Shown here piece after piece: positions 897 through 32,547 of a stretch of 38,027 nt of DNA. Made by a program: the position numbers and the translations under genes. This stretch comes from a virus. Location of the stretch: IMG/VR virus record IMGVR_UViG_3300020187_000003, one strand, 5' to 3'. The first letter of the stretch is position 1. Every line of letters begins with the position of its first letter. The notes beneath the pieces were generated by a model, which had not been told where the DNA came from, made no database searches, and was given only the letters and a program-made list of their open reading frames with translations.

Positions 897-1071
897 AGAT
901 GACGAGTGCTGGTGGTGTGAAGGGTACTGGGATGCGTGGGCTACTGACTGCCCAACCCATTCCGACAGCCGTGCGTTATCGGCCGCTGATAAGCGGCGGA
1001 TACTAGGTTTCACCGATGCTTCGGTAGAGTCGGATCGTGGGTTGGGCAGCGTTGTTCGCAGTCCATCGTGA
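886..1071 (+). CDS. Small Cys/Trp-rich hypothetical protein (CWWC...C..H)
   Basis: The ATG overlaps the last codons of the phosphoesterase gene. The ORF conflicts with the convergent ORF 1010-1192, so one of the two may be false. Confidence 0.3.
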   Translation: MRIEDDECWWCEGYWDAWATDCPTHSDSRALSAADKRRILGFTDASVESDRGLGSVVRSPS

Positions 1072-1192
1072 ACGTCGGGTAACTGGACCCATCACCTCTC
1101 ACCTCGATCAGTGTGCCGTGGTGTCCGCAGTGGATGGTGCGGTTCAGGTGGGCTTGCATGATGGGTGACGGGTGACGGGCCGGGGTAGTCAT
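1010..1192 (-). CDS. Hypothetical small protein, last gene of the early operon
   Basis: Its start overlaps the stop of the upstream gene as ATGA (1189-1192), the same coupling used throughout this operon. Confidence 0.45.
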   Translation of the reverse strand: MTTPARHPSPIMQAHLNRTIHCGHHGTLIEVRGDGSSYPTFTMDCEQRCPTHDPTLPKHR

Positions 1193-1437
1193 CGGTTGTA
1201 GTATCCGTTCCCGTGGGCCAGCTTGCGACGACTGGTGGCACCGAACGGTTCGTTACGCATGCACGGTGAACACAACGTCTCGCCGTCAACTACTTGGTCT
1301 GAGGCCAGGTATGTTTCGCATTCGTCGCAGCGCGTCTTGCCTGCCCGTAGTTTCTCGGAGTCCGGCATCAACCCTCCGTCCCTGGCCATCGGCACGCCAG
1401 CAATGTAGGTGGGTACGAATTTGGATTTGGATGTCAT
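1189..1437 (-). CDS. Small zinc-ribbon-like protein (CDEC...CSPC)
   Basis: ATGA overlap with the upstream gene at 1434-1437. Two CxxC pairs are present. Confidence 0.65.
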   Translation of the reverse strand: MTSKSKFVPTYIAGVPMARDGGLMPDSEKLRAGKTRCDECETYLASDQVVDGETLCSPCMRNEPFGATSRRKLAHGNGYYNR

Positions 1438-2009
1438 AGCAGTTGTCCTTCAGGTGGTTGCTCTTCGGTGAGTAGTGAGTTGGATGTTATGAGTCCGGTC
1501 AGCGTGGTGCCGGTAGCCGTGAACACAACGTGCCCTCGCCTGAACCCGAGCTGGATGACAGCGGGCTTGCCTTTATTGTCCTTCACCTTGCCCAGGGTGG
1601 CAGCGTGGGGTGAGTAGAAGCCGAGCTTGTCCAGCCCTACCGGAGGGTAGTCGGCCAGACACTGTGCTCTGAGTAGCTTGTAATTGCGGCTGATAGGCAC
1701 AGCTACTGCCTCGAAGACGCTGTCGCCCACGTACACACAGTGGCGTCCTTCCCTGGCTACCACCTGCACTGCAGCGGCCAGCGAGGCTTCTTTGAGGAAG
1801 CCTGCCCCATCCTCGATGAGTAGAGGCGGGCAACTGTACATCTCCACACCTTCCATCAGGATGGAGGCGAGCTTGATGCCATCGGTGGCAAACAACTCTG
1901 CACTGTCACCGTCCGGCGACGGGTGGATCTGGACATGGGATGCCCAAGTGGGGGCTTTCTTCGTGGTGTCTAGGAACCCGGCCAGGTTCTTGAAGTCGTG
2001 CTTGCTCAT
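1434..2009 (-). CDS. Hypothetical protein with sliding-clamp (DnaN)-like motifs
   Basis: ATGA coupling at 2006-2009. FATDGIKLA resembles the DnaN ATDghRLA motif, and a downstream ADYPPV resembles the clamp YP motif. At 191 aa it is about half the length of a clamp. Confidence 0.6.
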   Translation of the reverse strand: MSKHDFKNLAGFLDTTKKAPTWASHVQIHPSPDGDSAELFATDGIKLASILMEGVEMYSCPPLLIEDGAGFLKEASLAAAVQVVAREGRHCVYVGDSVFEAVAVPISRNYKLLRAQCLADYPPVGLDKLGFYSPHAATLGKVKDNKGKPAVIQLGFRRGHVVFTATGTTLTGLITSNSLLTEEQPPEGQLL

Positions 2010-2401
2010 TGCTGGATGGCCTCCGCATGTTGGGCGATGAGATTGCTCGCAGCGGCTTGCGCTTCAGGTTCCAATCCTTGCGCTACCGCATTAATCAGTT
2101 CAACGAGCGTGGATGTGAACAGTTCAAGCAGGCCAGTAGCCTGGTCGAGTTGGTCTTGGTCGGTGATGGGCATCATTCCTCCTCTTCGCCGCAAGGAGTC
2201 GACCAAAAAGTTCGGCAAGATCGCCGCAGTCGAACCGGGGTTCCTCTCATCGTATTCTGCGGCGTAGTCCAGCATGTACATGACGGTTTCGAAAGGGTCT
2301 TCCCTCATCGCTTGCCTGAGCAAGTCTGTGGCCTCGGCTGTAACCCGTGCAAGCTCGGCCTTGCACTCCGACTTACTGAGATGCTGGTATCTGTTCATCA
2401 T
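2006..2401 (-). CDS. Hypothetical helical acidic protein
   Basis: I place the start at the ATG that forms an ATGA overlap with the upstream stop (2398-2401), not at the longer ORF start 2443. Confidence 0.65.
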   Translation of the reverse strand: MMNRYQHLSKSECKAELARVTAEATDLLRQAMREDPFETVMYMLDYAAEYDERNPGSTAAILPNFLVDSLRRRGGMMPITDQDQLDQATGLLELFTSTLVELINAVAQGLEPEAQAAASNLIAQHAEAIQQ

Positions 2402-2601
2402 TCTTCCTCTTCTGCAAACATTTGTTCTTGGCAGTGGTGGCATAGCGATGAGATCAAAGTCTCCCTGTCCTCAATGCTCACGCCCGGCATCGCTTGTTGG
2501 ATGAGTGCCCCTGCCTGCCACGCTGCGTAGCCTAGCCGGGGGACGGTCACGTCGGTTAGGGTCGAGCACGCAAAGCACTCGACAGCTACGGTCTGGCCCA
2601 T
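2398..2601 (-). CDS. Small Cys-pair protein (CFAC...CHHC) with an acidic tail
   Basis: ORF in the coupled operon, with a 1-nt gap to the upstream gene. It has two Cys pairs and ends in EEEE. Confidence 0.65.
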   Translation of the reverse strand: MGQTVAVECFACSTLTDVTVPRLGYAAWQAGALIQQAMPGVSIEDRETLISSLCHHCQEQMFAEEEE

Positions 2602-2602
2602 C

Positions 2603-2806
2603 TCACTTCACCCCCGTGACAACACCGTCAACGACAGTGGCCTGACCGTACCAACTGTGTGGCTTGGGGTAGTGGGGGCCTTCGATGCCGACTCGGCCGT
2701 CGGTAGGGGCAGGGAACGGGCCGGGTGAGAACACAGTGACTCGCGTCCCTTCCTTGAGCGCCCTCTTCAGCGCTGCCTTCGATGGGTAGTTAGGTGATAC
2801 GTACAT
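2603..2806 (-). CDS. Hypothetical protein (67 aa)
   Basis: ORF on the operon strand, preceded by a 90-nt spacer that contains a hairpin. Confidence 0.65.
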   Translation of the reverse strand: MYVSPNYPSKAALKRALKEGTRVTVFSPGPFPAPTDGRVGIEGPHYPKPHSWYGQATVVDGVVTGVK

Positions 2807-2847
2807 GGTGGTTCCTTATCAGTTAGTGGGACCGAACAGTCCGCAAA

Positions 2848-2875
2848 CCACACCGAAGAGAGAGTGTCGGTGTGG
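2848..2875 (-). terminator. Intra-operon stem-loop (attenuator, terminator or processing site)
   Basis: 9-bp perfect stem CCACACCGA/TCGGTGTGG with a 10-nt loop. Only a TTT follows it on the minus strand. It lies between genes 2897-3103 and 2603-2806. Confidence 0.3.
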
Positions 2876-2896
2876 AGTGCGCAGTGTTCGAACTGC

Positions 2897-3103
2897 TCAG
2901 GTGGTTTCGTAGTTGGCCTCGTCCTCTTCCTCGTCATCATCCAGGACCCTTGTCATGCCCTCGCGACTCAGTTTCTCAGCCGCAACGTAGGATCCGGCGT
3001 CGGCCAGTCCGAAGTGGGTGTCTGTTGTGATTACGCAGCGGTATCTCCATGCGGGGGATGCGGTTGGACCCCAGTCAATAAACAATACCCTCTCGACAGT
3101 CAT
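2897..3103 (-). CDS. Hypothetical protein with an acidic C-terminus (DDDEEEDE)
   Basis: The start is chosen at the ATG (MTVERV) that forms an ATGA overlap with the upstream stop at 3100-3103. Confidence 0.6.
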   Translation of the reverse strand: MTVERVLFIDWGPTASPAWRYRCVITTDTHFGLADAGSYVAAEKLSREGMTRVLDDDEEEDEANYETT

Positions 3104-3387
3104 TCTCCTACCTTCAGGGTGAAGCTGGCGCTGGCCCGCTCCCATCCACCGTGGTCCGATGGTTCTAGGATGGCCTGCAGTGCGGTGATCATGTGTGATA
3201 CGGCGTCGTGCGGCGCACCTGGCAGGAAGAGCGTGACCGACCCAGCGGAGCGTTGACCGCCCCCCTCATCCGTCCTGACCATGACCTCAAGGGTGGTGAT
3301 CTTGCCGTCGTTGTACAGGTCATCGACCTCGATGGCGACTCGCGCCTCCTTGCATTGGGTGGCCTGGATGTTGGTTGATGTACTCAC
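3100..3387 (-). CDS. Hypothetical protein (95 aa)
   Basis: A GTG start forms a GTGA overlap with the upstream stop (3384-3387). Confidence 0.65.
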   Translation of the reverse strand: MSTSTNIQATQCKEARVAIEVDDLYNDGKITTLEVMVRTDEGGGQRSAGSVTLFLPGAPHDAVSHMITALQAILEPSDHGGWERASASFTLKVGE

Positions 3388-3635
3388 TTGCTCTCCTCAT
3401 TGTTGTTGAAACCTGGGAACGGTGGTGGTGGTGGCATAAGGCCAAGCTCCACCTTGAGATCTTGCCGTGCCACGTAGGCTGCAGTGAACTCGTTGTAGTT
3501 GGTCGCAGCGTCGACCCGGGCTGTCGCTGCCAGCATGCGCCGCCGTGCAATCTTGTCCTCGTACTCGAACATCATGTGCTCACCTGTACGCCAATCGTCG
3601 TCCATGCGCTGGCCTGTCCATTCTTCATCATTCAT
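3384..3635 (-). CDS. Hypothetical protein (83 aa, PPPPP tract)
   Basis: ATGA overlap with the upstream gene at 3632-3635. Confidence 0.65.
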   Translation of the reverse strand: MNDEEWTGQRMDDDWRTGEHMMFEYEDKIARRRMLAATARVDAATNYNEFTAAYVARQDLKVELGLMPPPPPFPGFNNNEESK

Positions 3636-3907
3636 TGTCGCTTGCCTTCCTCGCTGGCATGCCAGCTATTCCATTGCATCTCATCAAACTGCTCATCGGT
3701 CGGTCGCCACATCGGGTTGTCTTCCAGAGTGTGGATCACAGCGTCGAACCCCCCGTCGTAGTAACCGGCGTCCAACCATACAGTTGCACACCTTTCGCAC
3801 TCCCTCATGTCCTCCTCACTCATTCCGTCCCCACTGAGCAGGGTTGCCCGATGGTCGCTCGCTTGGATAGCCTCGGCCATTTCGATGTCTACGTCGTTCC
3901 ATATCAT
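3632..3907 (-). CDS. Hypothetical acidic protein (91 aa)
   Basis: AAGGAG Shine-Dalgarno (3915-3920 on the minus strand) lies 7 nt before ATG 3907. Confidence 0.7.
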   Translation of the reverse strand: MIWNDVDIEMAEAIQASDHRATLLSGDGMSEEDMRECERCATVWLDAGYYDGGFDAVIHTLEDNPMWRPTDEQFDEMQWNSWHASEEGKRQ

Positions 3908-3918
3908 TTCATCTCTCC

Positions 3919-3960
3919 TTGGTTGGTTGGTTGGTTGGTTGGTTGGTTGGTGGTTGGTTG
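3919..3960. repeat. (TTGG)8 microsatellite plus a degenerate extension; reads (CCAA)n in the minus-strand mRNA
   Basis: Eight perfect TTGG units at 3919-3950, then TGGTTGGTTG. The tract fills the spacer between stop 3962 and the SD at 3915-3920. Confidence 0.95.
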
Positions 3961-3961
3961 C

Positions 3962-4168
3962 TCATGCTCGGCACTCGGTGGCGCACGGTGTGCCCTTGGT
4001 GAGTAGCCGGGTCACGACCCGGTCGGCAGCTTCGAAGGTTTCTTCGGTCGGCTCCAGAATGCTGTACACCTGGTCGCTGATGTCGACAGCGCATCCGCAC
4101 GTCGTGAATACGTGCAGCTCGTTGTTGTGATGCAGCTTCAGCTCGTAGCTGGCGGTTGTGTTGTTCAT
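3962..4168 (-). CDS. Hypothetical protein (68 aa; an alternative ATG at 4219 would add an NPTQPSQPNQPTQ extension)
   Basis: AAGGAG (4174-4179 on the minus strand) lies 5 nt before ATG 4168. The longer ORF reads through the repeat tract. Confidence 0.6.
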   Translation of the reverse strand: MNNTTASYELKLHHNNELHVFTTCGCAVDISDQVYSILEPTEETFEAADRVVTRLLTKGTPCATECRA

Positions 4169-4177
4169 GGTGTCTCC

Positions 4178-4216
4178 TTGGGTTGGTTGGTTGGGTTGGC
4201 TGGGTTGGGTTGGGTT
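4178..4216. repeat. Imperfect TTGG/TTGGG microsatellite; a CCAA/CCCAA leader on the minus strand
   Basis: TTGGG TTGG TTGG TTGGG TTGG C TGGG TTGGG TTGGG TT, immediately 5' of the SD of gene 3962-4168. Confidence 0.9.
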
Positions 4217-4274
4217 CATCGCGGGCCGACACACCACAGTGCAGCGGCCAACAGTAGGACTATCAGCAGCAAGG

Positions 4275-5129
4275 TCATGCCGTCGCTAGTTCTTTAGCCA
4301 TCGGGGAGCGTCGCATCGTACCCTTAGCCGACAGCAGCACAACCCCGGCGCTGTCCTGTGTTCGGTCATCGTGCAGGTCGCCGTTCGTGGCGTCCATACC
4401 GTGCCACGTCGGCACGTCCAGCTCGCTGGCCTTGGCCCGAATCACGACAGCCACACTGTGTCCAGCGTCGACCATCGACCGGATAGCGTCGACAGTAGTA
4501 TGTTCGGTGGCCGAATATGTCAGGTGGTAGTTCGTTGGTCGGTTGCGTTCACGGATCTGAGCCGGAATCTTGCTGTAATCGTAGAACCGGGCCAGACGAC
4601 CCAACGGATCCCGCAGCTTGAACACCCGTGGAAGTAGTACTTCCCAGCGTCGGTCGCTCAACACGTTGAGCCGATGCAAACACTCACCGAGAGTTGTCGC
4701 AAGGTTGGACCTAACCTCATGCTCTACGATCCGAGCGAACGCCTCCGGGTAGGTGTGAGCGAATACCGTCTTACAGATCCGCCCGAGCTGTGCGCTCTCA
4801 TATCGTCCGTTACCGTTAGCCTGCAAACAGTTAGCGCTACATTCAACAGTCGCATGTGGACACTGGTCGGGCACGGAATACCCCGACTGGATGCCGTGCG
4901 CCCTGCAGTAGTCACGAGCGATAGTGTGCGGTGCTAGCGACAGCCCCCACGTAGGTAGTGTGGACTTATCAAGTTTCGAATTGTCCGTCGGTTGGGTCAA
5001 TATCTTTACGACCCCGGGACGATGAACGAAACCGAACTGTGTACGGAATTCCGCATAGGTTCGGTAGTCGTCTCGGACCTCGTCCGACATGTAGACCCGA
5101 GCGCTGGTTACCTTGGTTGTTCCTGGCAT
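4275..5129 (-). CDS. Cys-cluster protein, possibly GP88-like (function unknown)
   Basis: 284-aa ORF. The segment LSLAP...CPHATVECSANCLQANGNGRY resembles, from memory, the SLP..CP.A..C...C..G.Y signature of phage GP88-family proteins. Not verified. Confidence 0.7.
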   Translation of the reverse strand: MPGTTKVTSARVYMSDEVRDDYRTYAEFRTQFGFVHRPGVVKILTQPTDNSKLDKSTLPTWGLSLAPHTIARDYCRAHGIQSGYSVPDQCPHATVECSANCLQANGNGRYESAQLGRICKTVFAHTYPEAFARIVEHEVRSNLATTLGECLHRLNVLSDRRWEVLLPRVFKLRDPLGRLARFYDYSKIPAQIRERNRPTNYHLTYSATEHTTVDAIRSMVDAGHSVAVVIRAKASELDVPTWHGMDATNGDLHDDRTQDSAGVVLLSAKGTMRRSPMAKELATA

Positions 5130-5206
5130 GGCTTTCTCTCTCTCTTGGTGTAGTTCACCATGAGACCATCGGACATACGCCCGATAGCCCTAGCTGGACT
5201 AACCGA

Positions 5207-5524
5207 CTAGCTATGAAGCGACCACGTAGCAAGGTACGTATCGCCATCCCTATGGTAGGTCATGCCGCGTTCTAGATAAAGGCCACAGTCGGCGTCTATC
5301 CGCTTGCCATGCATCACCATCGCCACAAACATGCCGCCGAAGTCGCTTGTCTTATGCCGCCAGATAGCAGCGATAGACTCGCGAGCTGTCCGAGCTAGGT
5401 CATAATGCTCGTCTAGCATCGCCATTTCCAGCAGGTTCAACGAATACTCTAACGCCTGGTCGTGATCCAGACGTTCCACTGTCTCAACAGACTCGGGCTG
5501 ATACATCGGATTGTGTCCCATCAT
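5207..5524 (-). CDS. Hypothetical protein, first gene of the early operon
   Basis: 105-aa ORF. ATGATG start preceded by a (GA)6 purine tract acting as an SD-like leader. Confidence 0.7.
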   Translation of the reverse strand: MMGHNPMYQPESVETVERLDHDQALEYSLNLLEMAMLDEHYDLARTARESIAAIWRHKTSDFGGMFVAMVMHGKRIDADCGLYLERGMTYHRDGDTYLATWSLHS

Positions 5525-5563
5525 GTGTCTCTCTCTCTCTTAGCGCGGGGGAACATCCCCCGA

Positions 5564-5698
5564 TCTAGTAGAGCCACCACGACCGACTCTCGCCGCTTCT
5601 GCACTCGTCCGCTTCTGCACTGGCCCGGACAGGACCAGCTACCACGTAGGGGTATTTCCTACGACCGGACGAGCTACCACGTTGGTGGCTCTACTAGA
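5564..5698. repeat. Long-range 16-bp inverted repeat enclosing direct repeats and a hairpin
   Basis: TCTAGTAGAGCCACCA (5564-5579) pairs with TGGTGGCTCTACTAGA (5683-5698). Inside are CCGCTTCTGCACT x2 (5593, 5609), AGCTACCACGT x2 (5637, 5672) and the hairpin CGTAGG-N7-CCTACG (5645-5663). Confidence 0.9.
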
Positions 5699-6098
5699 CC
5701 ACTTGCCCTAGAGCCGGACTCACTGAGCGTCGCGGGGTAATCCCATCCGACACCGTCTAGTCCTGCCCCAAGGCAAGTCTTGCTAGCTTGTTCCCTCCAT
5801 GCCTGCCAGGTATTCACACCAGAACCAGGGAACCTATAGACCACTACTTCCCACACTGCGCCCATCGCCATCGGAGTTAGAATCCGCGTTCGTTATGTCG
5901 GTAGCGCTACTAGGTAGCGGTGCAAGTTGTCAAAGAACATCGGACGGCACATGCCCCAAGGCCCGAGGGCCTGAGGTACCGTCTCGCTGCCCCTAACTCG
6001 GCAACGGCTAGAACCTAACACCCCGCCGACCTCCCAACACAACCCGAAGCCACTCTGTAACACAACCGAAACAATGCTGTCACAAACGTAACAAACAG

Positions 6099-6132
6099 CC
6101 CCCACAATCGCCCCTAACAGCCCCCAAGGCCC
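6099..6132 (-). other. Canonical G-quadruplex motif on the minus strand (C-runs on plus)
   Basis: CCCCC-N7-CCCC-N6-CCCCC-N4-CCC on the plus strand, i.e. G3+ N1-7 x4 on the minus strand. Confidence 0.6.
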
Positions 6133-6191
6133 GGCCACACCTACCCCGCCACCCACTAACCTCGCGACGATTCACTACCTAAGCACCAACT

Positions 6192-6281
6192 AACAAATGA
6201 GTGCAACCCCGGCACTAATGCGGATTGCTCGCCAGCAACAAATGGGCGCAATGCCAGCACCAATGCGGATTACCCCAACCC
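6192..6281. repeat. Imperfect tandem duplication, 45-bp period, two units
   Basis: AACAAATG recurs at 6192 and 6237, and AATGCGGATT at 6217 and 6262. A hand alignment gives 32/45 identical overall and 29/35 in the first 35 positions. Confidence 0.85.
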
Positions 6282-6334
6282 TAAACCAACAGTAAAGGGT
6301 GCGCCCTAATCTAATTAATCATATAGTTAGCGCC

Positions 6335-6462
6335 TGCTTCATTTGCGAAGCACTAGAGCCGGCAGTGGGGAATAGGAATAAGAACCATTCCCAGTGTGTG
6401 ACACATGACCATGTGACACATGACCATTGCATCGACGAAGCGCTTGCTGCGTAAATGAAGCA
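6335..6462. repeat. 18-bp inverted repeat (16/18 match) bracketing the operator-like repeats
   Basis: TGCTTCATTTGCGAAGCA (6335-6352) versus the reverse complement of TGCTGCGTAAATGAAGCA (6445-6462), with a 92-bp spacer. Confidence 0.85.
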
Positions 6463-6506
6463 ACCAAACGCCCGATGTGACGCATTTCACATGTGACACA
6501 TGTCAC
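6397..6506. promoter_or_regulatory. Operator-like array: four copies of TGTGAC(A/G)CAT
   Basis: Perfect 15-bp tandem GTGACACATGACCAT x2 (6398-6412, 6413-6427), TGTGACGCAT (6476-6485), and the palindrome GTGACA-CA-TGTCAC (6493-6506), which ends 12 bp upstream of TTGACA. Confidence 0.5.
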
Positions 6507-6517
6507 CCCCTACCCCC

Positions 6518-6545
6518 TTGACAAAAATCCGGCGGCGGGTACCCT
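6518..6545 (+). promoter_or_regulatory. Candidate rightward sigma-70/SigA-type promoter
   Basis: TTGACA (6518-6523), a 16-nt spacer, then TACCCT (6540-6545, TANNNT type). Confidence 0.4.
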
Positions 6546-6819
6546 TAGGGGTGGAGGGCGGGTTAGGCGAGATTGGTGGGGGTGGGTTTTGGTGGGGATG
6601 GTACCTGGTGGTGGGTGGCTGGTTGTGGTGTGAAAAAGGCGGGGTACACTACAGTCGAGCTTATGGGTCCACCATAGGGTGGCTCTGCCACCATGTGTCT
6701 TTGCCCGCATAGGGCTATGTCTGGGACCATGTTTTGTTTTTGCGAGCAGTAAGCGAGCAGTCTTTGAACCCTCTGTATGTCTTTGTTTTATTGGGTTTTG
6801 AGATTTAATAAGTTTTTTC

Positions 6820-6848
6820 TTGACTTTGGCCTAGGGTGCAGCTAGGCT
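6820..6848 (+). promoter_or_regulatory. Candidate rightward promoter for the packaging/structural block
   Basis: TTGACT (6820-6825), a 17-nt spacer, then TAGGCT (6843-6848). It is preceded by an AT-rich, UP-like tract GAGATTTAATAAGTTTTTTC. Confidence 0.45.
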
Positions 6849-7001
6849 TTCAAATACCGGAGTGAGCGGCAGCGAGGGTCGCCTCCTTTAGTTCCGGCTC
6901 CTCGGGCACAGAGTGCAGAGAGGAGCTAGGTGCAGAGGCAGCGGGTGCAGCTATTTGGAGAGACTTGTGTCTCTAGTGTGGCGTGTGTAGGCTGCTCGTC
7001 T

Positions 7002-7166
7002 ATGGATGAGCTTGTGGATATGGTGGAGTTGTTAGAAGGTAAGGCTTTGTGGGGAGAAGGGTTGGAGCCTTCTTTGGTGCGTGAAGTGGCGCGTGTGCTG
7101 CAGGCGGCTATTGACGAGATCACTTTGTTGTGTGAGTTTGCTGCGGAAGTGGACGAGGGTTTCTGA
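7002..7166 (+). CDS. Possible small acidic helical protein (54 aa)
   Basis: ORF in the late leader, starting at MDELVD. No clear SD. It could instead be untranslated leader. Confidence 0.25.
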   Translation: MDELVDMVELLEGKALWGEGLEPSLVREVARVLQAAIDEITLLCEFAAEVDEGF

Positions 7167-7235
7167 TCGCTGGTATGGTGGTGCTCGCACCCGGTCATTC
7201 TTCCTCCTCTCTCAGGGTGGCCGGGTGCTTTAACC

Positions 7236-7706
7236 ATGAAGTTTGGAATGTTGCCTAATGAACCCGACACGACTGCTCGTGAATTGTCTGAGTTCGGTAA
7301 AGAACTGCTTGAGTGGGATACCACTCCTAGAGATTTGCGTGACGAAGGCGAAAAGACTTTGGTCGGCTATTGCAACAGTCGTGGCCATAGTCGCAATCGT
7401 TGTATGCGGACAATGCAAAGAGATGACTACAAGATGGCGCGTCGCCAACTGTCACTCGAAAAAGGTGAAGTCGACTACAAGACCAGAGCAATCCTTGACG
7501 TGGCCTACGAACAGGCACTGAAAGGGAACCCTCAGGCCCGCAAAGACTGGATGGCTTTCTACCAGCCGACAGCCCGCCACCTCACGCCCGCCAAGGTCGA
7601 CGTGCAGGTTAAAGAAGAACCGGTCCCTGTGGAAGCGGTGGAGCCTACGGCCATGAGCGATGAGGAATTAGAAGCTGCTGTAGCGGAATGGGCTAACGAT
7701 GGATAG
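7236..7706 (+). CDS. Putative small terminase subunit / DNA-binding protein (positional call)
   Basis: First sizeable ORF of the late block, upstream of TerL. It has a basic HTH-like centre (GYCNSRGHSRNRCMRTMQRD) and an acidic C-terminus. Confidence 0.5.
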   Translation: MKFGMLPNEPDTTARELSEFGKELLEWDTTPRDLRDEGEKTLVGYCNSRGHSRNRCMRTMQRDDYKMARRQLSLEKGEVDYKTRAILDVAYEQALKGNPQARKDWMAFYQPTARHLTPAKVDVQVKEEPVPVEAVEPTAMSDEELEAAVAEWANDG

Positions 7707-9031: not shown

Positions 9032-9165
9032 TGGACGCTGCGGGCTGGTGGGACATGGTTAAAGGTGAGCAGATGTCGCCGCTAGTAGGCCACGTTTTGA
9101 CAAGTCTGGTGTTGTATGCGGAACAGTTGGAGGTTGCTCAACCTGAAAAAGATGAGGAAGAGTAA
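9031..9165 (+). CDS. Possible 44-aa coupled mini-ORF
   Basis: TGATG overlap with the upstream stop and TAATG overlap with the TerL start. Too short for the ORF track. Translates as MDAAGWWDMVKGEQ...EKDEEE. Confidence 0.35.
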   Translation: MDAAGWWDMVKGEQMSPLVGHVLTSLVLYAEQLEVAQPEKDEEE

Positions 9166-10763
9166 TGGCTTCCAGGGAGGAGGTTGAGCAAGAGGTAGAG
9201 TTCCGCCGTTGCAAAGCAAACGTGTTCTATTTTTTAGAAACGTATTGGCACATTTCGACTCCTGGGGCTTCGCCGTTGTTTGAGTTGCGAGAGCCTCAGC
9301 GGATAGCTTTGGAAACGTGGGAAAGCGGCGAAAACACTATTTCGTTGAAAGCCCGCCAGATTGGCTGGTCGACTCTGTCTGCTGCTTACGCGTTTTGGAT
9401 AGCGTTCTTTCACCCTGACCAAACGATTGTAATGCTTTCTCGTACCGAAAATTTTGCTAAAAAGCTATTGCAGATGAGCAAGTATGGTTATGCCCGCATT
9501 CCTGACTGGATGAAAGAGCGTGGGCCTGCGGTTGAGAAACAGAATCTGCTTGAGCTTAATTTTCAGAACGGTTCTTCTATCGAGTCAATGGCTTCCCGTG
9601 AGAACGCTGCTCGTGGCATTACGGCTTCTTTGATTATTGCTGACGAGTGGGCGTTCTTTAACGATCCTGCTGAGGCTTGGACTGCTATCTATCCCGCGAC
9701 TGAAGTTGGCGGGCAGATTATTGGCATCTCTACGGCTAACGGGTTTGGCAACTGGTTCCACAAGTTTTACAATTCTGCCAAGGCTGGAACCAACAATTTT
9801 AAGGCAATGTTTTTTCCTTGGAATTCCATTCCGTCTCGTGACGAGGCATGGTACTTGCAGCGCACGAAGGACATGGAACCTTGGCAGTTGTCGCAGGAAT
9901 ACCCGGCTACTGACGAAGAAGCATTTATAGCTTCGGGTAACCCGGCATTTGACACTGACATGTTGAAGTCTCGTATAGAGATTTTGCCGCCCGCTTTTGA
10001 AGGGATACTGGCAGAAGGGGACGACGGGGTCGCCACTCTTGTCCGGGTTCCTGAGCCGAACTTGAAAGTGTGGGAGAAACCGCAAGGCGGCATGCTGTAT
10101 GTGGTAGGCGCTGACGTGGCTACTGGTGCAGAGGACGGCGACTACTCTACAGCCACTGTGATTAAAGCGAACACGGGCCAGGTTGTGGCTGTGTTCCGTG
10201 AACGTATTGTGCCTGAAGACTTTTCTGATTATTTGGCTAGGTTGGCGTTGTGGTACAACACGGCTTTGCTCGCTCCTGAACGGAACACGCATGGCCTGGT
10301 GGTGGTGCGGAGGCTCACGTACGATTTGAAGTACCCGAATCTTTACATGCATGTGCGTGACAACATCCGGCAGTCTGTAACACGCAATGTGGGCTGGCAT
10401 ACGAACCAGGCTTCAAAGATGGTTTTGGTTGACGAGCTGGGGGCAGGGTTGCGGCGTGGAAAGCTTATCCTTCATTGTGAGGATACGTTTACGGAGTTGT
10501 TGGCTTTCTCTCGTAAGACTCGTTCGGGCGGGAACACTGTGTATGAGGGGAAGCCTCATGATGATCTTGTTATTTCTTTGGGTATTGCCAATATGGCGTT
10601 GCAGCAGGTTCATGTCCCTGAGATAAAAGAAGAAGAGCCGGATGGGTTAACTATGGCTTTTTTTGAATCATTGGTAGACCGGGCGAAAGGTGCAACAAAA
10701 ACGCCCTATACTGCTGGTTACAGAAAACCGCCGACTACACCGGACTTTGTGATTTATGCTTAA
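9165..10763 (+). CDS. terL: Terminase large subunit
   Basis: Walker-A-like KARQIGWST, Walker B LIIADEWAF, and a coupling motif ISTANG. Nuclease-domain acidic residues are present (VGADVATG, HDDLVISL). 532 aa, immediately upstream of the portal. Confidence 0.93.
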   Translation: MASREEVEQEVEFRRCKANVFYFLETYWHISTPGASPLFELREPQRIALETWESGENTISLKARQIGWSTLSAAYAFWIAFFHPDQTIVMLSRTENFAKKLLQMSKYGYARIPDWMKERGPAVEKQNLLELNFQNGSSIESMASRENAARGITASLIIADEWAFFNDPAEAWTAIYPATEVGGQIIGISTANGFGNWFHKFYNSAKAGTNNFKAMFFPWNSIPSRDEAWYLQRTKDMEPWQLSQEYPATDEEAFIASGNPAFDTDMLKSRIEILPPAFEGILAEGDDGVATLVRVPEPNLKVWEKPQGGMLYVVGADVATGAEDGDYSTATVIKANTGQVVAVFRERIVPEDFSDYLARLALWYNTALLAPERNTHGLVVVRRLTYDLKYPNLYMHVRDNIRQSVTRNVGWHTNQASKMVLVDELGAGLRRGKLILHCEDTFTELLAFSRKTRSGGNTVYEGKPHDDLVISLGIANMALQQVHVPEIKEEEPDGLTMAFFESLVDRAKGATKTPYTAGYRKPPTTPDFVIYA

Positions 10764-11058
10764 CGAATACACACCGCATCATGCTGTATGCAATGATTGC
10801 AATACGGTGTTTGAAGATTTGCACAAGCACGGGGTGTGTTTTGGTTGCAAAATATCTACTTTGACTTTTGACAAAGTTTCTTATATTGAAGACGGAATGG
10901 CTGAAAAAGAATTAGTGGCAGCTAACGCTGCTTCGGGCCGGAAGATTGTTAGGGCTTCTCAGACGGACCCGGATAAGCAAGCAGAAGCAAAGAAGACAGT
11001 AAAGCCAACTCTCTCTGACGAGACTAAACGACGGATTTATCAAACTCATGGACGCTAA
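10756..11058 (+). CDS. Small zinc-ribbon protein (CNDC...CFGC)
   Basis: Overlaps the TerL end and the portal start. Two CxxC pairs and a basic C-terminus. Confidence 0.55.
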   Translation: MLNEYTPHHAVCNDCNTVFEDLHKHGVCFGCKISTLTFDKVSYIEDGMAEKELVAANAASGRKIVRASQTDPDKQAEAKKTVKPTLSDETKRRIYQTHGR

Positions 11059-13150
11059 CGAACTTATACCCGCTCCTTCTGGGCGCGTGCCCGTGAAGAG
11101 GCAGCAGAAACTAGCTGATTACCGGGCTGAAATTGCTGCTTCGCAACATCAGATGGAGGAGAAGAAGTATCACGAGAAGTGGCGGCGGTTCATACACATG
11201 TATGAAGCGAATCTTAATTATTCGACTGACCCGGCAGTAGACTCGATAGATGTTCCTATTGCGTTTGCAAACGTCAACATCCTGCGCTCTGCGTTGACGG
11301 TCAACCATCCTAAGTTTACGGCTTCGCCTCGCAACCTCCAATCTCATCTGGCTGCGACTTTGTGCGAAGAGATCGTAAATTGGGAGTGGTATCACAACGA
11401 CATCCAAGATGAGATCCGCAGGACTACAGACGATTTGTTGATAACTGGCAATGGTTTTATCAAGGTTGGGTATCAGCTTGACACGTATGGGAAGCGTTCG
11501 GATGTGAGCCAGCTTGCTTCGCCTGCCCCTATGGGTGGCATTGATTACGCAGCGTTTGAACAGCCAGGCTACAACAAAGAGTTTGATAAAACTGTTGAAG
11601 GCGCTGCGCAGGTTTTGAATTCTAGGGCAGCTATGGGTTCAGATCTACCCTCTCGTTCTGCGATGGCTAAGCAGTTGCGGGAGCAGGGTTCAATCATTGT
11701 TAAAGATGATTGTGTAGTCGAGCGGGTAAGCGTCTTTGACATGCTCGTTGATTCGACCGCTACGTCTATGAAGAACTTGCAGTGGATTGCGCAGCGCGTG
11801 CCGGTGCGTAGCGATGTGGCCCAGAACAATAAAAACTGGGCACCTCGGATTCGCAAGCAGTTGCGTGCGGGGCAGAAATCTATTGCTGAAGATCCTGAAG
11901 ATGAGGGCTTTAACGCCCGTTACAACTCGCCTAACTCTTCCATAAGCCAAGGCCGTCCTGGTGGGGAAAAGATTGAATGGGTGATTGTGTGGGAGTTTTA
12001 CGACTTGCAAGAAGGAACTATGTGTGTCTTTGATGACAACATGGCAGACGATTTTCTTGTAGAGCCTCAGCCAATGCCGTTCAAGTTTGGCCACCCGTTT
12101 ATCCATATTGGTAATTATTCTGTGCCTGACAAGTTCTGGCACATTGGCGATCTTGAACGCATTGAAACTCTCCAGATGGAGATTAACAAAACGCATTCGG
12201 CTCTGGTAAACGACCGTAAAGGTTTCCAGCGGAAATGGATGGTTCGTGAAGATTACTTGACTGACGCTGGCCCTAACTCGCTATCGGAAGTGTTGCGTTC
12301 TGAAGACGACAACTTGATTGCTTCGATCCCGATTAAGGGGCAAGGGGTCAGGATGGAAGACATTATTTCCAGAGTCCCTTCACCAGCGTTAGATCCGGCT
12401 TTGTACAGTGTGGGGTCCAAGCTGCAGAATCTGATGAATGAGGTGAGTGGCATTTCGGATTTCCAGCGTGGCGCTTCTGGCGGCGGCGGCACTGCAACTG
12501 AAGCAGCGATCATTAATGATGGCACTCTTGCTCGCATGAAAGAGAAGCAGGGCAAGCTTGAGCATCTGATGCGCGATGTAGCCCGCCGTCTTGTGCAACT
12601 TAAAATGCAGTACATGAAATCTGAAAAGATGTTGCGCATTTCTTTGGGTGCTAACCCGCAGTCTGCCGAAAAGCTGCGTAATGCTGGTGTGGATTTGAAG
12701 GGAGCCAACTCGCAGGATCCGACTGAGTTGTTTACGTCTTACACCGCTAAAGATATTCAAGGTGAGTACGACGTTATTGTGGAAGCAGGATCTTCTACGG
12801 CGTTTAATGAATCGCAGCGTCGCCGATCTATTCAGGAGATGCTGGCGACTGTCGGCCCGTTTTTGCAGATGGGCAAGATTGATGTTGACGCATTGTTGAC
12901 TTATGTGTTGCGGTTTGGGTTTGGCATACCGAATGCTTCAGAGTTCATGGTCGGGACGGCCCCTGAGCCTGCGGGTCCGCAGGGCGGAATGGTAGAGCCT
13001 GGAGCGGGGCCTGGTGGGGGTTTGCCGCCTGATTTAATGGCCATGATGCAAGGCCAGGGTGGCCCTGCTGGGGTGCCGTCTGTGGCTGGCGGGGTGTTGC
13101 AGCCTTCTGGTGGGGTGCCTCAGTCTGCGGCTCAACCACCACCTTATTAA
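11048..13150 (+). CDS. Portal protein
   Basis: 700-aa ORF directly after TerL and before the scaffold/capsid genes. The Gly/Pro-rich C-terminal tail is unusual. Confidence 0.8.
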   Translation: MDANELIPAPSGRVPVKRQQKLADYRAEIAASQHQMEEKKYHEKWRRFIHMYEANLNYSTDPAVDSIDVPIAFANVNILRSALTVNHPKFTASPRNLQSHLAATLCEEIVNWEWYHNDIQDEIRRTTDDLLITGNGFIKVGYQLDTYGKRSDVSQLASPAPMGGIDYAAFEQPGYNKEFDKTVEGAAQVLNSRAAMGSDLPSRSAMAKQLREQGSIIVKDDCVVERVSVFDMLVDSTATSMKNLQWIAQRVPVRSDVAQNNKNWAPRIRKQLRAGQKSIAEDPEDEGFNARYNSPNSSISQGRPGGEKIEWVIVWEFYDLQEGTMCVFDDNMADDFLVEPQPMPFKFGHPFIHIGNYSVPDKFWHIGDLERIETLQMEINKTHSALVNDRKGFQRKWMVREDYLTDAGPNSLSEVLRSEDDNLIASIPIKGQGVRMEDIISRVPSPALDPALYSVGSKLQNLMNEVSGISDFQRGASGGGGTATEAAIINDGTLARMKEKQGKLEHLMRDVARRLVQLKMQYMKSEKMLRISLGANPQSAEKLRNAGVDLKGANSQDPTELFTSYTAKDIQGEYDVIVEAGSSTAFNESQRRRSIQEMLATVGPFLQMGKIDVDALLTYVLRFGFGIPNASEFMVGTAPEPAGPQGGMVEPGAGPGGGLPPDLMAMMQGQGGPAGVPSVAGGVLQPSGGVPQSAAQPPPY

Positions 13151-30768: not shown

Positions 30769-30996
30769 CTATCCCATTAGTCCTAGCCAGTCGCAGTCCA
30801 CGCCGTGCCAGTCCCAAACTGTTGAGTTGTCTTGCGGTGTGGGTGCGACGTGGCCGCACCATTTGCATCGTGAGTGGGTGGCTTTGATGCGTGGGTCTTC
30901 GGGCAGCAGCCCTTGGACTAACGACTCTAGCCTGTCCAGCCTTTTTCTCATCGATTTGGTGGTGTCAATTGTGTCACTGCTGGTTGGGCTAATCAT
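30769..30996 (-). CDS. Hypothetical Cys/His/Trp-rich protein (75 aa)
   Basis: ORF abutting the downstream gene and overlapping the whiB end by 8 nt. Confidence 0.55.
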   Translation of the reverse strand: MISPTSSDTIDTTKSMRKRLDRLESLVQGLLPEDPRIKATHSRCKWCGHVAPTPQDNSTVWDWHGVDCDWLGLMG

Positions 30997-31225
30997 TGGC
31001 GTGCCTTTCTCTATGTTCGCTGATGCGTTGGCGTTGGGTTGTCCCGCCCCAGACTCCTTGGTACATGTCTAGGTTGGAGTCGGCTTCCCGCCTGCACTCG
31101 GCTTTAACTTTGCATGTGTTGCAGACTGCAACGGCGAAGGTGGGTTTTTTGTGCGGCGGGTCTGGGAAGAACACTTCGATGTCCATGCCCAGGCATGCCG
31201 CCTGGTCGCGCCATCCACCGCTCAT
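30989..31225 (-). CDS. whiB: WhiB-family (Wbl) iron-sulfur transcription factor
   Basis: C-X23-C-X2-C-X5-C (AAC...VCNTCKVKAEC) followed by GVWGG and a basic C-terminus. 78 aa. Confidence 0.9.
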   Translation of the reverse strand: MSGGWRDQAACLGMDIEVFFPDPPHKKPTFAVAVCNTCKVKAECRREADSNLDMYQGVWGGTTQRQRISEHRERHAND

Positions 31226-32311: not shown

Positions 32312-32355
32312 GTGGGGTCTTTCGGTGTGGGTTTGCGGGCACCATAGGAAAACCT

Positions 32356-32368
32356 ATGACAATGTCAT
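32356..32368. promoter_or_regulatory. 13-bp palindrome ATGACA-A-TGTCAT in the second divergent control region
   Basis: Perfect 6+1+6 dyad. The half-site is related to the ATGAC/TGTGACA motifs at 6397-6506. Confidence 0.45.
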
Positions 32369-32437
32369 TGACGAGCAGCCGTCGGAGCCGCCAGGCGATA
32401 GGCGGTGCATTGCCAGTGGCATATGGTGGGAGCAACA

Positions 32438-32448
32438 CCATGACATGG
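32438..32448. promoter_or_regulatory. 11-bp palindrome CCATG-A-CATGG
   Basis: Perfect 5+1+5 dyad containing ATGACAT, 70 bp from the first palindrome. Confidence 0.35.
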
Positions 32449-32547
32449 GAGTGTTGTTGTTGTCAAGTTATTCTTTTTGACTGTGCAAGCATCGCTTCCT
32501 GTGCTAGGGTTGACTTTGTTGTTATCGATCTCAAAGGATCCCGCTCG

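Follow-up and report, generated by a model that had tools for sequence, protein, structure and literature searches.

A cluster of CRP-type TGTGA-N6-TCACA dyads at the divergent hub of an actinobacterial-type phage, putatively an operator array for host Crp/GlxR

The window, the whole stretch of 38,027 nucleotides analyzed here (IMG/VR record IMGVR_UViG_3300020187_000003), holds an actinobacterial-type phage of ~37.9 kb, which assembled as a circle with a k-mer overlap of 127 nt within a gene. The phage WhiB gene and GP88 point to an actinobacterial host, and the window contains some 30 small ORFans to which no function has been assigned. A noncoding hub of 1.1 kb, with a GC content of 52 to 55%, separates a leftward early operon (GP88 and ORFans) from a rightward packaging and structural operon. 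The GC skew switches sign between positions 6000 and 7000, where the cumulative skew also reaches its minimum. Megablast of the hub against GenBank phages gave no match, and Rfam (positions 5800 to 7400) and tRNA scans found no element. DnaA boxes (TTRTCCACA, at most 1 mismatch) occur at chance level in the window and are absent from the array-bearing part of the hub (6157 to 6900), the nearest DnaA-type match being located at 7013, inside a small ORF (6930 to 7166). LexA boxes are likewise at chance level in the window, with none in the array-bearing part of the hub. A scan of the hub for E. coli-type promoters returned none and was replaced by a scan with a TANNNT rule. The features of the hub discussed below are as follows.

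6335 to 6352, no strand assigned: dyad TGCTTC-N6-GAAGCA, left arm of an 18-bp inverted repeat and itself palindromic
6397 to 6411, plus strand: site 1, TGTGACACATGACCA, a strong TGTGAC half-site with a degenerate right half of the GACCA type
6412 to 6426, plus strand: site 2, an exact 15-bp tandem copy of site 1
6445 to 6462, no strand assigned: second copy, dyad TGCTKC-N6-GAAGCA, right arm of the inverted repeat
6476 to 6491, plus strand: site 3, TGTGACGCATTTCACA, TGTGA-N6-TCACA with 0 mismatches, the sole exact match in the window
6492 to 6507, plus strand: site 4, TGTGACACATGTCACC, TGTGA-N6-TCACA with 1 mismatch, abutting site 3
6507 to 6523, plus strand: C-rich box CCCCTACCCCC followed by TTGACA, the putative -35 element of a rightward promoter, P1; invariant in 5 relatives
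6820 to 6848, plus strand: promoter P2, TTGACT, a 17-nt spacer and TAGGCT, from the scan with the TANNNT rule

The unit of the motif is a 16-bp dyad, TGTGAC-N4-GTCACA, which is the CRP/FNR-family consensus TGTGA-N6-TCACA. Full dyads are present at 6476 to 6491 and 6492 to 6507, and sites 1 and 2 retain the TGTGAC half only. An earlier note on this DNA had described four TGTGAC(A/G)CAT operator-like sites; the cluster indeed exceeds chance, but the true unit is the 16-bp dyad, and the CAT is not kept in relatives. All sequences listed in that note were recovered in place: the perfect tandem of GTGACACATGACCAT (6398 to 6427), TGTGACGCAT (6476), the dyad GTGACA-CA-TGTCAC (6493 to 6506) with CACATGTG (6488 to 6495), and the 11 nt (CCCCTACCCCC) that separate this dyad from TTGACA at 6518. 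Site 4 also fits GTG-N6-GNCAC, the Streptomyces Crp motif. Site 3 lies 64 bp to the right of site 2, a distance of approximately six helical turns, and the centers of sites 3 and 4 lie 34.5 bp and 18.5 bp, respectively, upstream of the first T of TTGACA.

A compositional origin of the motif, which the note had raised as a possible artifact, is contradicted by a search of the whole 38-kb window. GTGACRCAT has five matches versus 0.82 expected, a number reached in none of 100 shuffles, and four of the five fall within 104 bp of the hub (6398 to 6501). If the 21 genomic copies of TGTGAC/GTCACA were placed at random, four of these hexamers within 125 bp would have a P value of ~0.0009. TGTGA-N6-TCACA, with up to 1 mismatch allowed, occurs four times in the window, and the best two matches form the abutting pair at 6476 to 6507. 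The evidence supports the four hub sites as a genuine, noncompositional cluster in noncoding DNA between divergent gene blocks.

Conservation in related phages, proposed in the note as a further check, is borne out in five distinct close relatives, which carry four to six sites each with varying copy number. TGTGAC is invariant or nearly so in all 24 sites of these relatives, a full right half of the KTCAC(A/C) type is present in 15 of them, and G4 and C13 are found in 24 of 24, GACCA-type variants included. Thirteen different site sequences occur among the relatives, with the spacer accounting for most of the differences. The proximal pair of sites is always positioned at -18.5 and -34.5 from TTGACA, and site 3 has an identical position in 5/5 distinct relatives. 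Further upstream, the TGTGAC-NNAT-GACCA variant of site 1 is also present in L001, L003, L010, and L013; the region of sites 1 and 2 is reduced to a single copy in L010 and L013, and L003 has a perfect dyad, TGTGACAAATGTCACA, as its second copy. A distal site lies ~190 to 260 bp upstream of TTGACA in relatives, in a nontandem position. Leftward of the array, the DNA is nonhomologous between close relatives. The proximal sites and the CCCCTACCCCC-TTGACA box lie at a mosaic junction, and the genes neighboring the array differ between close relatives while the sites are kept. This combination of invariant half-sites, variable spacers, and a fixed distance to TTGACA supports a predicted role of the sites as protein-binding operators. 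More distant family members (58% identity in the 156-amino-acid [aa] protein encoded by the first gene) are without the dyads and have other repeats at the same place, namely, CCATGGGTTTGGC (~5 times), CCAAACCATCA (4 times), and GCTTCATTGACGA (twice).

The perfect 15-bp tandem of sites 1 and 2 might suggest a recent, functionless local duplication by slippage in a fast-evolving spacer. The number of units does change by slippage, since L001, compared with the window, has acquired an additional 16-bp unit. However, the half-sites remain invariant while spacers and flanks diverge, the dyad also occupies separate, nontandem positions in relatives (including the distal site), and it recurs in many unrelated phages. 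As an account of the array, slippage is given almost no weight.

The promoter that the earlier note had placed next to the sites stands in part. Its TTGACA is conserved, but the only candidate for a -10 element of P1, TACCCT at 6540 to 6545 with a 16-nt spacer, fits TANNNT in this window alone and is not conserved in L001, L003, and L013. Approximately 300 bp downstream of the array, P2 is kept in all close relatives, and distant relatives have TTGACA..TGTTATAAT; P2 is likely the principal promoter from which the packaging and structural operon is transcribed. The 18-nt inverted repeat (6335 to 6352 and 6445 to 6462), proposed to allow looping or cruciform formation around the tandem pair, is present with 89% complementarity, but a functional need for it is not supported by the relatives. 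Among close relatives, the left arm is unique to the window, and the right arm is kept in L001, L002, and L010 but deleted in L003 and L013. An element related to the left arm, GCTTCATTGACGAAGC, is found in the distant relatives L015, L016, and L018.

TGTGA-N6-TCACA is the consensus for E. coli CAP, M. tuberculosis CRP, and C. glutamicum GlxR (PMC10187061, PMC5758884). M. tuberculosis CRP requires the discriminators G4 and C13 (PMC5758884), which all 24 sites possess, and the Streptomyces Crp motif is GTG(N)6GNCAC (PMC10033298), which fits the extra G at position 11 of the sites. The two half-sites at a spacing of exactly 6 bp are found in sites 3 and 4, and in sites 1 and 2 the left half only. 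Our preferred, still tentative reading (probability of roughly 45%) is that the cluster represents an operator array for a dimeric helix-turn-helix (HTH) factor of CRP/FNR-type specificity, most likely host Crp/GlxR. One dimer would bind each 16-bp dyad, and the abutting full dyads at 6476 to 6507 would act at a fixed distance upstream of the conserved CCCCTACCCCC-TTGACA box. If TTGACA is the -35 element, centers 18.5 and 34.5 bp upstream of it therefore correspond to approximately -53.5 and -69.5 relative to the presumed transcription start. The half-dyads at 6397 to 6426, six turns further upstream, could add cooperative or looped binding. In this manner, the array would tie transcription from the hub to the physiological state of the host. 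The favored effect would be factor-dependent firing of the rightward P1, and an alternative effect would be repression or insulation of leftward early transcription.

Actinobacterial CRP/GlxR sites are read by an HTH dimer (PMC10187061, PMC5758884, PMC10033298). Like the array, they consist of a 16-bp dyad, TGTGA-N6-TCACA or GTG-N6-GNCAC, located upstream of a promoter-like element, and multiple sites are possible. Unlike them, the array has two to three abutting sites at a center spacing of 16 bp, with four to six sites clustered (up to 12 in other phages), is carried by a phage instead of a chromosome, and, as a putative binding array, would be positioned at -53.5/-69.5 instead of the canonical -41.5/-61.5. 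Class I or II activation is compatible with positions such as -41.5, -61.5, and -71.5, and repression with sites that overlap the promoter. The whiB1 promoter of M. tuberculosis has tandem CRP sites. Tandem abutting sites are untypical of chromosomal CRP regulons, and in this respect the arrays resemble phage operators more, which weighs against a Crp reading. The same can be said of the position at -53.5, which is noncanonical for class I or II, together with the nonconserved -10 of P1. That sites 1 and 2 are half-sites only also speaks against it; half-site-only variants are common among natural CRP sites (PMC10187061).

Host control of phage promoters by CRP has a precedent in phage T1. In the portion of the T1 study considered here (PMC6737242), host cAMP-CRP directly regulates phage promoters (pir, dam, and recE) and, like the proposal made for the array, couples development to the metabolic state of the host. 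Unlike the window phage, T1 is a phage of E. coli, its promoters are repressed by CRP jointly with the phage protein Pir, and that portion reports no abutting-site arrays. The lambda OR/OL and Mu Mor sites share with the array the occurrence of several dyad-symmetric 16- to 17-bp sites at a divergent control region. However, they belong to identifiable phage proteins and have phage-specific sequences, whereas the array has a host-factor consensus that occurs across unrelated phages. The stoperators of cluster A phages (L5 gp71-type repressor) are similar in being a short repeated motif in actinophages with GP88 and sigma-like early genes, and GATGAGTGTCAAG-type repeats are visible in mycobacteriophage Alma. 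Stoperators are asymmetric 13-bp sites that are distributed genome-wide and bound by the phage repressor. In contrast, the array sites are palindromes that occur in the hub only, and Alma has none of them.

Abutting TGTGA-N6-TCACA pairs are present in 20 IMG/VR stretches, versus ~0.1 expected on our own estimate of the database size. Many of the pair-bearing contigs hold 3 to 12 sites, and the pairs are often located upstream of the large terminase gene (TerL) or of early genes. The core motif is found in phage contigs of 36 to 65% GC, and the only genes detectably common to the pair-bearing contigs and the window are WhiB and GP88, both actinophage hallmarks. Because only these two are shared, a binder common to all array phages would more easily be a conserved host protein than a phage protein. 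Given their retention in related phages and their recurrence as arrays in many unrelated phage contigs, the sites are most likely protein-binding operators.

The main rival to host Crp/GlxR is a phage-encoded dimeric ORFan regulator, either a Cro-like early-shutoff repressor or a middle/late activator, with a specificity that equals or mimics the CRP consensus. Abutting dyad arrays at a divergent hub are classic phage-operator anatomy, and the hub does contain several dyads at a divergent promoter region that are kept among relatives; Mu Mor is a phage-encoded dimer on a 16-bp dyad (PMC4390567). Double sites are common in viral contigs but rare in bacterial genomes, where the strict pattern occurs in 2 of 185,579 species genomes. 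The other repeats at the homologous position in distant relatives are what coevolution of binder and site would give, and this observation also counts against a Crp reading. The ~30 small ORFans of the window would be possible sources of such a protein. However, Pfam, PHROGs, and NCBIfam searches with more than 40 window ORFs revealed no DNA-binding domain other than WhiB, and no HTH or CRP-family protein was found among the ORFs scanned, so that a cognate phage DNA-binding protein is missing from this set, although nondetection is not proof of absence. Moreover, agreement with a widespread host-factor consensus, exact even in the N6 spacing, would then be a coincidence, the same motif occurs in contigs of widely differing GC content that share only WhiB and GP88, and the neighboring genes change between close relatives while the sites stay. 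On balance, we consider a phage-encoded regulator rather unlikely.

Individual candidates fared no better. Searching the PDB by sequence with the 156-aa, 99-aa, and GP88 proteins gave no match. For the 156-aa protein, the AlphaFold model (pLDDT of 67) has 2ao9, a small-terminase-like phage protein, as its best Foldseek match, which is not significant (E = 1.3), and neither this model nor the family scans revealed a small terminase. The 99-aa protein, which the earlier note had named as a candidate regulator, has no family or PDB match and an unusable AlphaFold model (pLDDT of 45), and this proposal is not upheld. WhiB, named there as well, gained no support, and the argument against it is that WhiB-like proteins are not known to read palindromes. 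GP88 was rejected as the binder because Alma carries GP88 without any site (at most 1 mismatch) in 50 kb. A family of 93- to 98-aa proteins beside GP88 in other array loci was dismissed, with no homologue in the window. A resemblance of CCCCCTACCCCC and CCCTTAGGGGTGG to the cos-proximal end of Alma was discarded as well, since the local alignment scored no higher than a chance match elsewhere in the window.

It had also been suggested that one regulator coordinates the hub and a second divergent control region (32312 to 32547) through a common ATGAC half-site. The dyads of this region, ATGACAATGTCAT at 32356 to 32368 and CCATGACATGG at 32438 to 32448, are not beyond chance. Across the whole window, the density of dyads is 2.0 per kb for 6-nt arms and 6.9 per kb for 5-nt arms, ATGAC/GTCAT is found 76 times (2.0 per kb), and ATGWCAC is not enriched, with 7 matches versus 10.5 expected. 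No significant motif is common to the hub and the dyads at 32356 and 32438, and the half-site link does not hold. A regulator common to both regions is likewise unsupported: no TGTGA-N6-TCACA match with fewer than 2 mismatches is present in the second region, and the geometry of its dyads differs (ATGAC-N3-GTCAT). Close relatives are uninformative on this region because they are ~99% identical there. In the ~89%-related L038, one of the dyads is kept with a change and CCATG-A-CATGG is lost, and the region does not align in the 64%-related L021.

The location of the arrays raises a further alternative, a cis element for DNA handling, such as a terminase or packaging recognition site near a genome end or a set of origin iterons, possibly with a host bending protein. 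In the window, the array lies upstream of the packaging module. In L031 and the L028 family, its distance upstream of TerL is ~0.5 to 0.7 kb, and in a diverged phage family with 75 to 97% TerL identity the pair is kept ~480 to 560 nt upstream of TerL. A suggestive analogy is provided by the cultured Streptomyces phage Immanuel3, in whose 46 kb just two sites match with 1 mismatch or fewer, at 304 to 319 and 359 to 374; both fall between the left terminal repeat and TerL, beginning 29 and 84 nt inward of the 275-bp repeat. By tblastn, the window and Immanuel3 show no relatedness at E ≤ 1e-3. Retention of the pair in the diverged family and the two sites of Immanuel3 also count in favor of host Crp/GlxR. 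A role in packaging or at the terminus would agree with this recurrent location beside TerL or a terminal repeat, which in this respect counts against a Crp reading, as does the phasing to the -35 hexamer, which varies between lineages (~-24.5 in L028, on our reading, versus -18.5 in the window). Many metagenomic contigs of the group (L002, L004, L010, L014, L016, and L017) end in or near the hub, but such breaks can also be explained by strain-level mosaicism. The switch in GC skew and its cumulative minimum at 6000 to 7000, the DnaA boxes that flank arrays in L027, L032, and L055, and the weak, nonsignificant likeness of the 156-aa protein to 2ao9 would all agree with DNA handling. On the other hand, the window assembly is circular with its overlap inside a gene, and no DnaA box lies in the array-bearing part of its hub. 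The units are palindromes at 15- to 16-bp spacing and not same-face direct iterons, and the combination of same-face direct repeats, DnaA boxes, and an AT-rich element that marks an iteron origin was not found. One recognition sequence would not be expected across unrelated terminases or initiators. Single sites ahead of many small genes in L033 and L035, as well as sites interleaved with LexA-type boxes, do not fit DNA handling, and such dispersed single sites fit a transcription factor and not an origin or packaging site. We regard DNA handling as improbable.

The DnaA boxes beside some arrays also bear on MtrA, a response regulator of actinobacteria. In M. tuberculosis, the MtrA box (GTCACAgcg-like) has the hexamer GTCACA/TGTGAC as its core, and MtrA boxes lie between DnaA boxes in oriC (PMC4285127), like the related arrays that abut DnaA boxes. 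However, real MtrA boxes are direct repeats, two GTCACAgcg-like units in M. tuberculosis and GTAACC-N5-GTAACC in Streptomyces (PMC4285127, PMC12323332). In the array, the half-sites are inverted with N4 between them, same-strand copies are 15 to 16 bp apart, direct repeats at ~11 bp from start to start are not found, and the gcg tail is absent. MtrA boxes were rejected on this geometry and are very improbable.

Returning to host Crp/GlxR, several arrays adjoin a second type of regulatory site. In L027, L037, L052, L033, and L046/L049, dyads are located beside or near C/AGAAC-N4-GTTCG/T boxes, which are of the LexA type of Gram-positive bacteria and actinobacteria, and in L027, L037, and L052 the dyads and the LexA-type boxes touch or interleave. 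The array hubs therefore appear wired to host global regulators. By extension, TGTGA-N6-TCACA arrays could be a widespread actinophage cis module that recruits host Crp, often with LexA, at the junction of genome end and early or packaging genes, a generalization that we consider possible but doubtful. Such a module is apparently undescribed, and searching phage papers by text for the motif, and the literature for the conserved inverted repeat of phiC31, yielded nothing usable. The arrays are found in aquatic lineages known from metagenomes as well as in cultured phages of Streptomyces, Immanuel3 among them, and the module could sense the cAMP and SOS state of the host and thereby time phage development. 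Alternatively, Crp could act as an IHF-like bending factor for promoter or terminase complexes in hosts without classical IHF.

If host Crp binds the array, the cAMP status of the host would be read at the central switch region by the window phage, for which neither a repressor nor an integrase could be identified, and by many unrelated actinophages. Where LexA-type boxes abut the sites, DNA-damage status would be read there as well. This would provide a testable mechanism by which the infection programs of abundant marine and freshwater actinobacterial phages are coupled to host physiology, with Streptomyces phage Immanuel3 on S. griseus as a cultured system for testing. If a phage protein binds instead, the array would be the operator of a new regulator family. 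Abutting TGTGA-N6-TCACA dyads offer a simple signature for finding control hubs in the genomes of uncultured phages.

The repeated sites in the 1.1-kb non-coding hub of the window (6157-7235) are a real operator-type array of CRP-type dyads, that is, putative binding sites. All elements named in the earlier note were present at their positions, and the cluster it described is not compositional: the window has five copies of GTGACRCAT where 0.82 would be expected, four of them within 104 bp. One of the five is coding, so the motif is not equally dense in coding DNA. Likewise, four TGTGAC/GTCACA hexamers fall within 125 bp (p ~0.0009). The cluster stands, and its unit, proposed as TGTGAC(A/G)CAT, is better defined in a 16-bp register as TGTGAC-N4-GTCACA dyads.

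Sites of the hub array
6397-6426: sites 1 and 2; TGTGAC half retained, then NNAT-GACCA
6476-6491: site 3, TGTGACGCATTTCACA; exact match to TGTGA-N6-TCACA
6492-6507: site 4, TGTGACACATGTCACC; one mismatch to TGTGA-N6-TCACA

Sites 3 and 4 are the best two TGTGA-N6-TCACA matches in the 38 kb, and totals at one and two mismatches in the whole-window scan are at chance level. TGTGA-N6-TCACA is the consensus for Escherichia coli CAP and actinobacterial Crp/GlxR (PMC10187061, PMC5758884). The G at position 11 of the dyads is also explained by the Streptomyces Crp motif, GTG(N)6GNCAC (PMC10033298), and the discriminator positions of Mycobacterium tuberculosis CRP, G4 and C13 (PMC5758884), are found in all sites. 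MtrA boxes, which have the GTCACA hexamer in common with the hub dyads but are direct repeats, were rejected.

The phage genome is a circular assembly of ~37.9 kb. An exact 127-nt direct repeat (1-127 and 37901-38027), within a metallophosphoesterase/exonuclease gene, is an assembler k-mer overlap; as assembled, the genome is therefore a 37,900-bp circle.

Gene blocks around the hub
1010-6156, leftward: ORFan block and GP88-family gene
4275-5129, within the leftward block: GP88-family (PF17338) gene
6157-7235: non-coding hub, between the leftward block and the rightward packaging/structural block
9165-10763: large terminase, T4-type
11048-13150: portal, P22-type
26.5-32.3 kb, minus strand: primase, DnaB-like helicase, RusA, WhiB, RecB-type exonuclease
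30989-31225, minus strand: WhiB
32.5 kb through the window end to 896, plus strand: tail-fibre-like proteins and endolysin

ORF family searches and a tRNA scan found no integrase, repressor, RNA polymerase or tRNA among the window genes. The presence of WhiB and GP88 suggests an actinobacterial host, and related contigs come from marine metagenomes, TARA included. The suggestion that WhiB or the 99-aa protein binds the sites gained no support.

Two proteins, the 156-aa product of 7236-7706 and the 99-aa protein, served to retrieve relatives. To the right of TTGACA (6518), the window hardly differs from five distinct close relatives; to the left of ~6390 they are unrelated to it, other genes replacing the cassette at 5130-6390, and the remaining left arm, GP88 included, is 85-99% identical. 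Among the compared contigs (L-numbers), L001, L003/L009, L010 and L013/L038 carry unrelated genes and non-coding DNA in this mosaic cassette, between flanks of 85-99% identity. The array lies exactly at the mosaic junction, the cassette's right-hand boundary, and is kept in the relatives with four to six sites each. TGTGAC is invariant or nearly so across 24/24 sites, and the 13 distinct sequences differ mainly in the spacer, the right half being KTCAC(A/C) or GACCA(T/C). Measured from TTGACA, the proximal pair is always centred 18.5 and 34.5 bp upstream. The number of copies differs: L001 shows a third abutting unit, and L010 and L013 each lack one tandem half-site. An extra perfect dyad, TGTGACATCCGTCACA or TGTGACCCATGTCACA, is present in the relatives and absent from the window, at a position ~190-260 bp upstream of TTGACA. 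Constant half-sites, variable spacers and the fixed TTGACA distance together are the signature of selection on a putative dimer-binding site.

The dyads are absent from remoter members of the family (156-aa protein 58% identical), which have different repeats at the homologous position (L014, 255-355; L015, 1284-1320; L016, 625-679; L018, 1887-1941). One repeat family comprises about five CCATGGGTTTGGC copies spaced 17-25 bp apart, and another three to four CCAAACCATCA copies spaced exactly 11 bp; these are putative lineage-specific binding sites. Such differing repeats, the operator-array anatomy and the scarcity of arrays of this kind in chromosomes favor the main rival reading, an unrecognised phage regulator as the binder, which we regard as rather unlikely. 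A strict double-site pattern has only two matches in 185,579 species genomes.

In IMG/VR, the pattern TGTGACNNNNKTCACATGTGAC retrieved nine further loci, and an unbiased core of two abutting TGTGA-N6-TCACA retrieved 20 stretches versus ~0.1 expected by chance, by our own estimate for an assumed collection of roughly 6x10^10 bases. The array loci have a GC content of 36-65% and often contain 3-12 sites. By tblastn, WhiB is the only gene in common with the window (L028, L029, L034, L045, L054); Pfam/HMM searches add GP88 (L033-35, L046, L049, L055). The nearest cultured relatives of their TerL and GP88 proteins are in Streptomyces and Mycobacterium phages, and the array contigs are therefore actinophage-like. 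In a seven-locus family (TerL identity, 75-97%), TerL is preceded at 480-560 nt by a site pair; in L031 it is preceded at ~690 nt by an eight-site array. L046 and L049 have three abutting sites 148 nt upstream of GP88, and in L033-35 single sites, part of a repeated cassette, precede many small genes. The cultured Streptomyces phage Immanuel3 (L058; 46 kb) has only two matches at ≤1 mismatch (304-319 and 359-374). They start 29 and 84 nt inward of the 275-bp left terminal repeat, between that repeat and TerL.

Dyads also occur beside or near C/AGAAC-N4-GTTCG/T boxes, the form taken by LexA boxes in Gram-positive bacteria and actinobacteria. Contigs with this arrangement are L027, L037 (from a bacterial MAG), L052, L033 and L046/L049, and in the first three the two kinds of box touch or interleave. 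Composites in which these boxes alternate with or abut TGTGA-N6-TCACA, 0-7 nt apart, are recurrent (L027, 13650-14450; L037, 7215-7315; L052, 1000-1700; L033, 2301-2340). DnaA boxes flank the arrays of L027, L032 and L055; the L027 composite has five of them.

In four independent phage lineages, a GP88-family gene lies 0.05-1.3 kb from the dyads (window, 4275-5129; L033, 6890-7591; L046, 4284-4988; L055, 8503-9219). Cys residues of the family form conserved clusters, C-x6-C-x3-C plus, in most members, C-x2-C-x2-C at the C terminus, which suggests a metal or Fe-S protein. GP88 was rejected as the dyad binder because mycobacteriophage Alma carries it without any such site.

Three features would fit a packaging, terminus or origin role: the arrays repeatedly lie beside TerL or a terminal repeat, contig ends cluster at the hub, and GC skew switches there. 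Such a site explains only some contexts of the dyads, and we consider this role improbable. A transcription-factor site explains them all, namely arrays in the hub, isolated sites ahead of many genes and pairing with LexA-type boxes. Since an identical core motif occurs in phages with almost no common genes and matches a host-factor consensus including its spacing, a conserved host Crp/GlxR-family dimer reading the hub dyads would be the most economical explanation, a tentative one to which we assign a probability of about 45%. Phage T1 offers a precedent, its promoters being under direct control of host cAMP-CRP (PMC6737242).

The hub GC skew switches from -0.28 to +0.27, with the cumulative minimum in the same place. 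Left of the hub centre, 6000-6300 is strongly C/A-rich; right of it, 6550-6640 is G/T-rich with GGGG runs, and long imperfect inverted repeats occur (e.g., 6096-6118/6562-6584). The CA-left/GT-right arrangement recurs in distant relatives, and the Immanuel3 terminal repeat is likewise CA-rich. Possible readings are a terminal-repeat region, an origin, or leaders prone to forming G-quadruplexes or R-loops. In the leftward-operon leader, two tandem 35-nt repeats (6192-6226 and 6237-6271; 83% identical), each with a small hairpin followed by CATTTGTT on the minus strand, are limited to the window's own version of the cassette.

An actinobacterial promoter rule (-35 match of at least 4/6, 16-19-nt spacer, TANNNT -10) gave only two hub candidates, both rightward, and no leftward promoter; we infer, rather than observe, the direction of regulation by the array.

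Promoter candidates
6518, rightward: P1, TTGACA, 16 nt, TACCCT
6820, rightward: P2, TTGACT, 17 nt, TAGGCT

P2 persists in distant relatives as well and probably serves as the operon's main promoter. In P1, the promoter proposed in the earlier note, the -35 hexamer and a C-rich box are conserved and the -10 hexamer is not, so P1 may be factor-dependent or no promoter at all. The 20-mer CCCCCTACCCCCTTGACAAA (6506-6525) recurs exactly in two otherwise unrelated viral contigs, L005 (5720-5740) and L007 (1399-1420); in L007, TTGACA, 16 nt and TATAAT form a perfect promoter sequence. Similar C-rich boxes, CCCACCCTCCC and CCCCACCCCCTACCC, lie beside dyads in L031 and L033, and the C-rich box/TTGACA 20-mer may be a shared promoter-proximal element. 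Between P1 and P2, overlapping alternative hairpins (CCACC-ATAG-GGTGG/GGTGG-CTCTG-CCACC; 6669-6692 and 6730-6744) precede T-rich tracts. This region is nearly invariant among close relatives and has no Rfam match; it may act as an attenuator or a terminator, or form the 3' terminus of a short P1 transcript. Just downstream of P2, GGTCGCCTCCTTTAGTTCCGGCTCC (6877-6901) is conserved down to relatives with 58% identity in the 156-aa protein (L004, L014, L015). It includes CCTCCTTT, similar to the 16S rRNA 3' end (an anti-Shine-Dalgarno mimic), and may be a leader RNA element controlling operon translation.

Coordination of the hub and the second control region (32312-32547) by one regulator is not supported. 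No hub-type dyad occurs there, the best match, TGTTATCGATCTCAAA, having two mismatches (chance level). ATGACA-A-TGTCAT and CCATG-A-CATGG differ in spacing from the hub dyads, dyads of their kind number 2-7 per kb genome-wide, and the window contains 76 copies of ATGAC, the presumed common half-site. In L038 (roughly 89% related), the first dyad is altered to ATGACGATGTCAT and the second is lost. A CATAGG-AAAA-CCTATG hairpin/dyad (32343-32358) directly adjoins ATGACAATGTCAT-TGACG in this region, and a CACCATAGG string is also found at 6669 in the hub, with significance not established. The looping or cruciform proposed for the 18-bp inverted repeat fares no better as a conserved feature, since the arms are not kept in relatives: the left arm is found only in the window, and the right arm is missing in L003 and L013. 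Both arms are themselves dyads, TGCTKC-N6-GAAGCA; a related element in distant relatives, GCTTCATTGACGAAGC, hints at a second, putative binding specificity.

The array is one case of a recurrent phage cis-module of which we found no earlier description, and Immanuel3 is a tractable system in which to test the role of the dyads.
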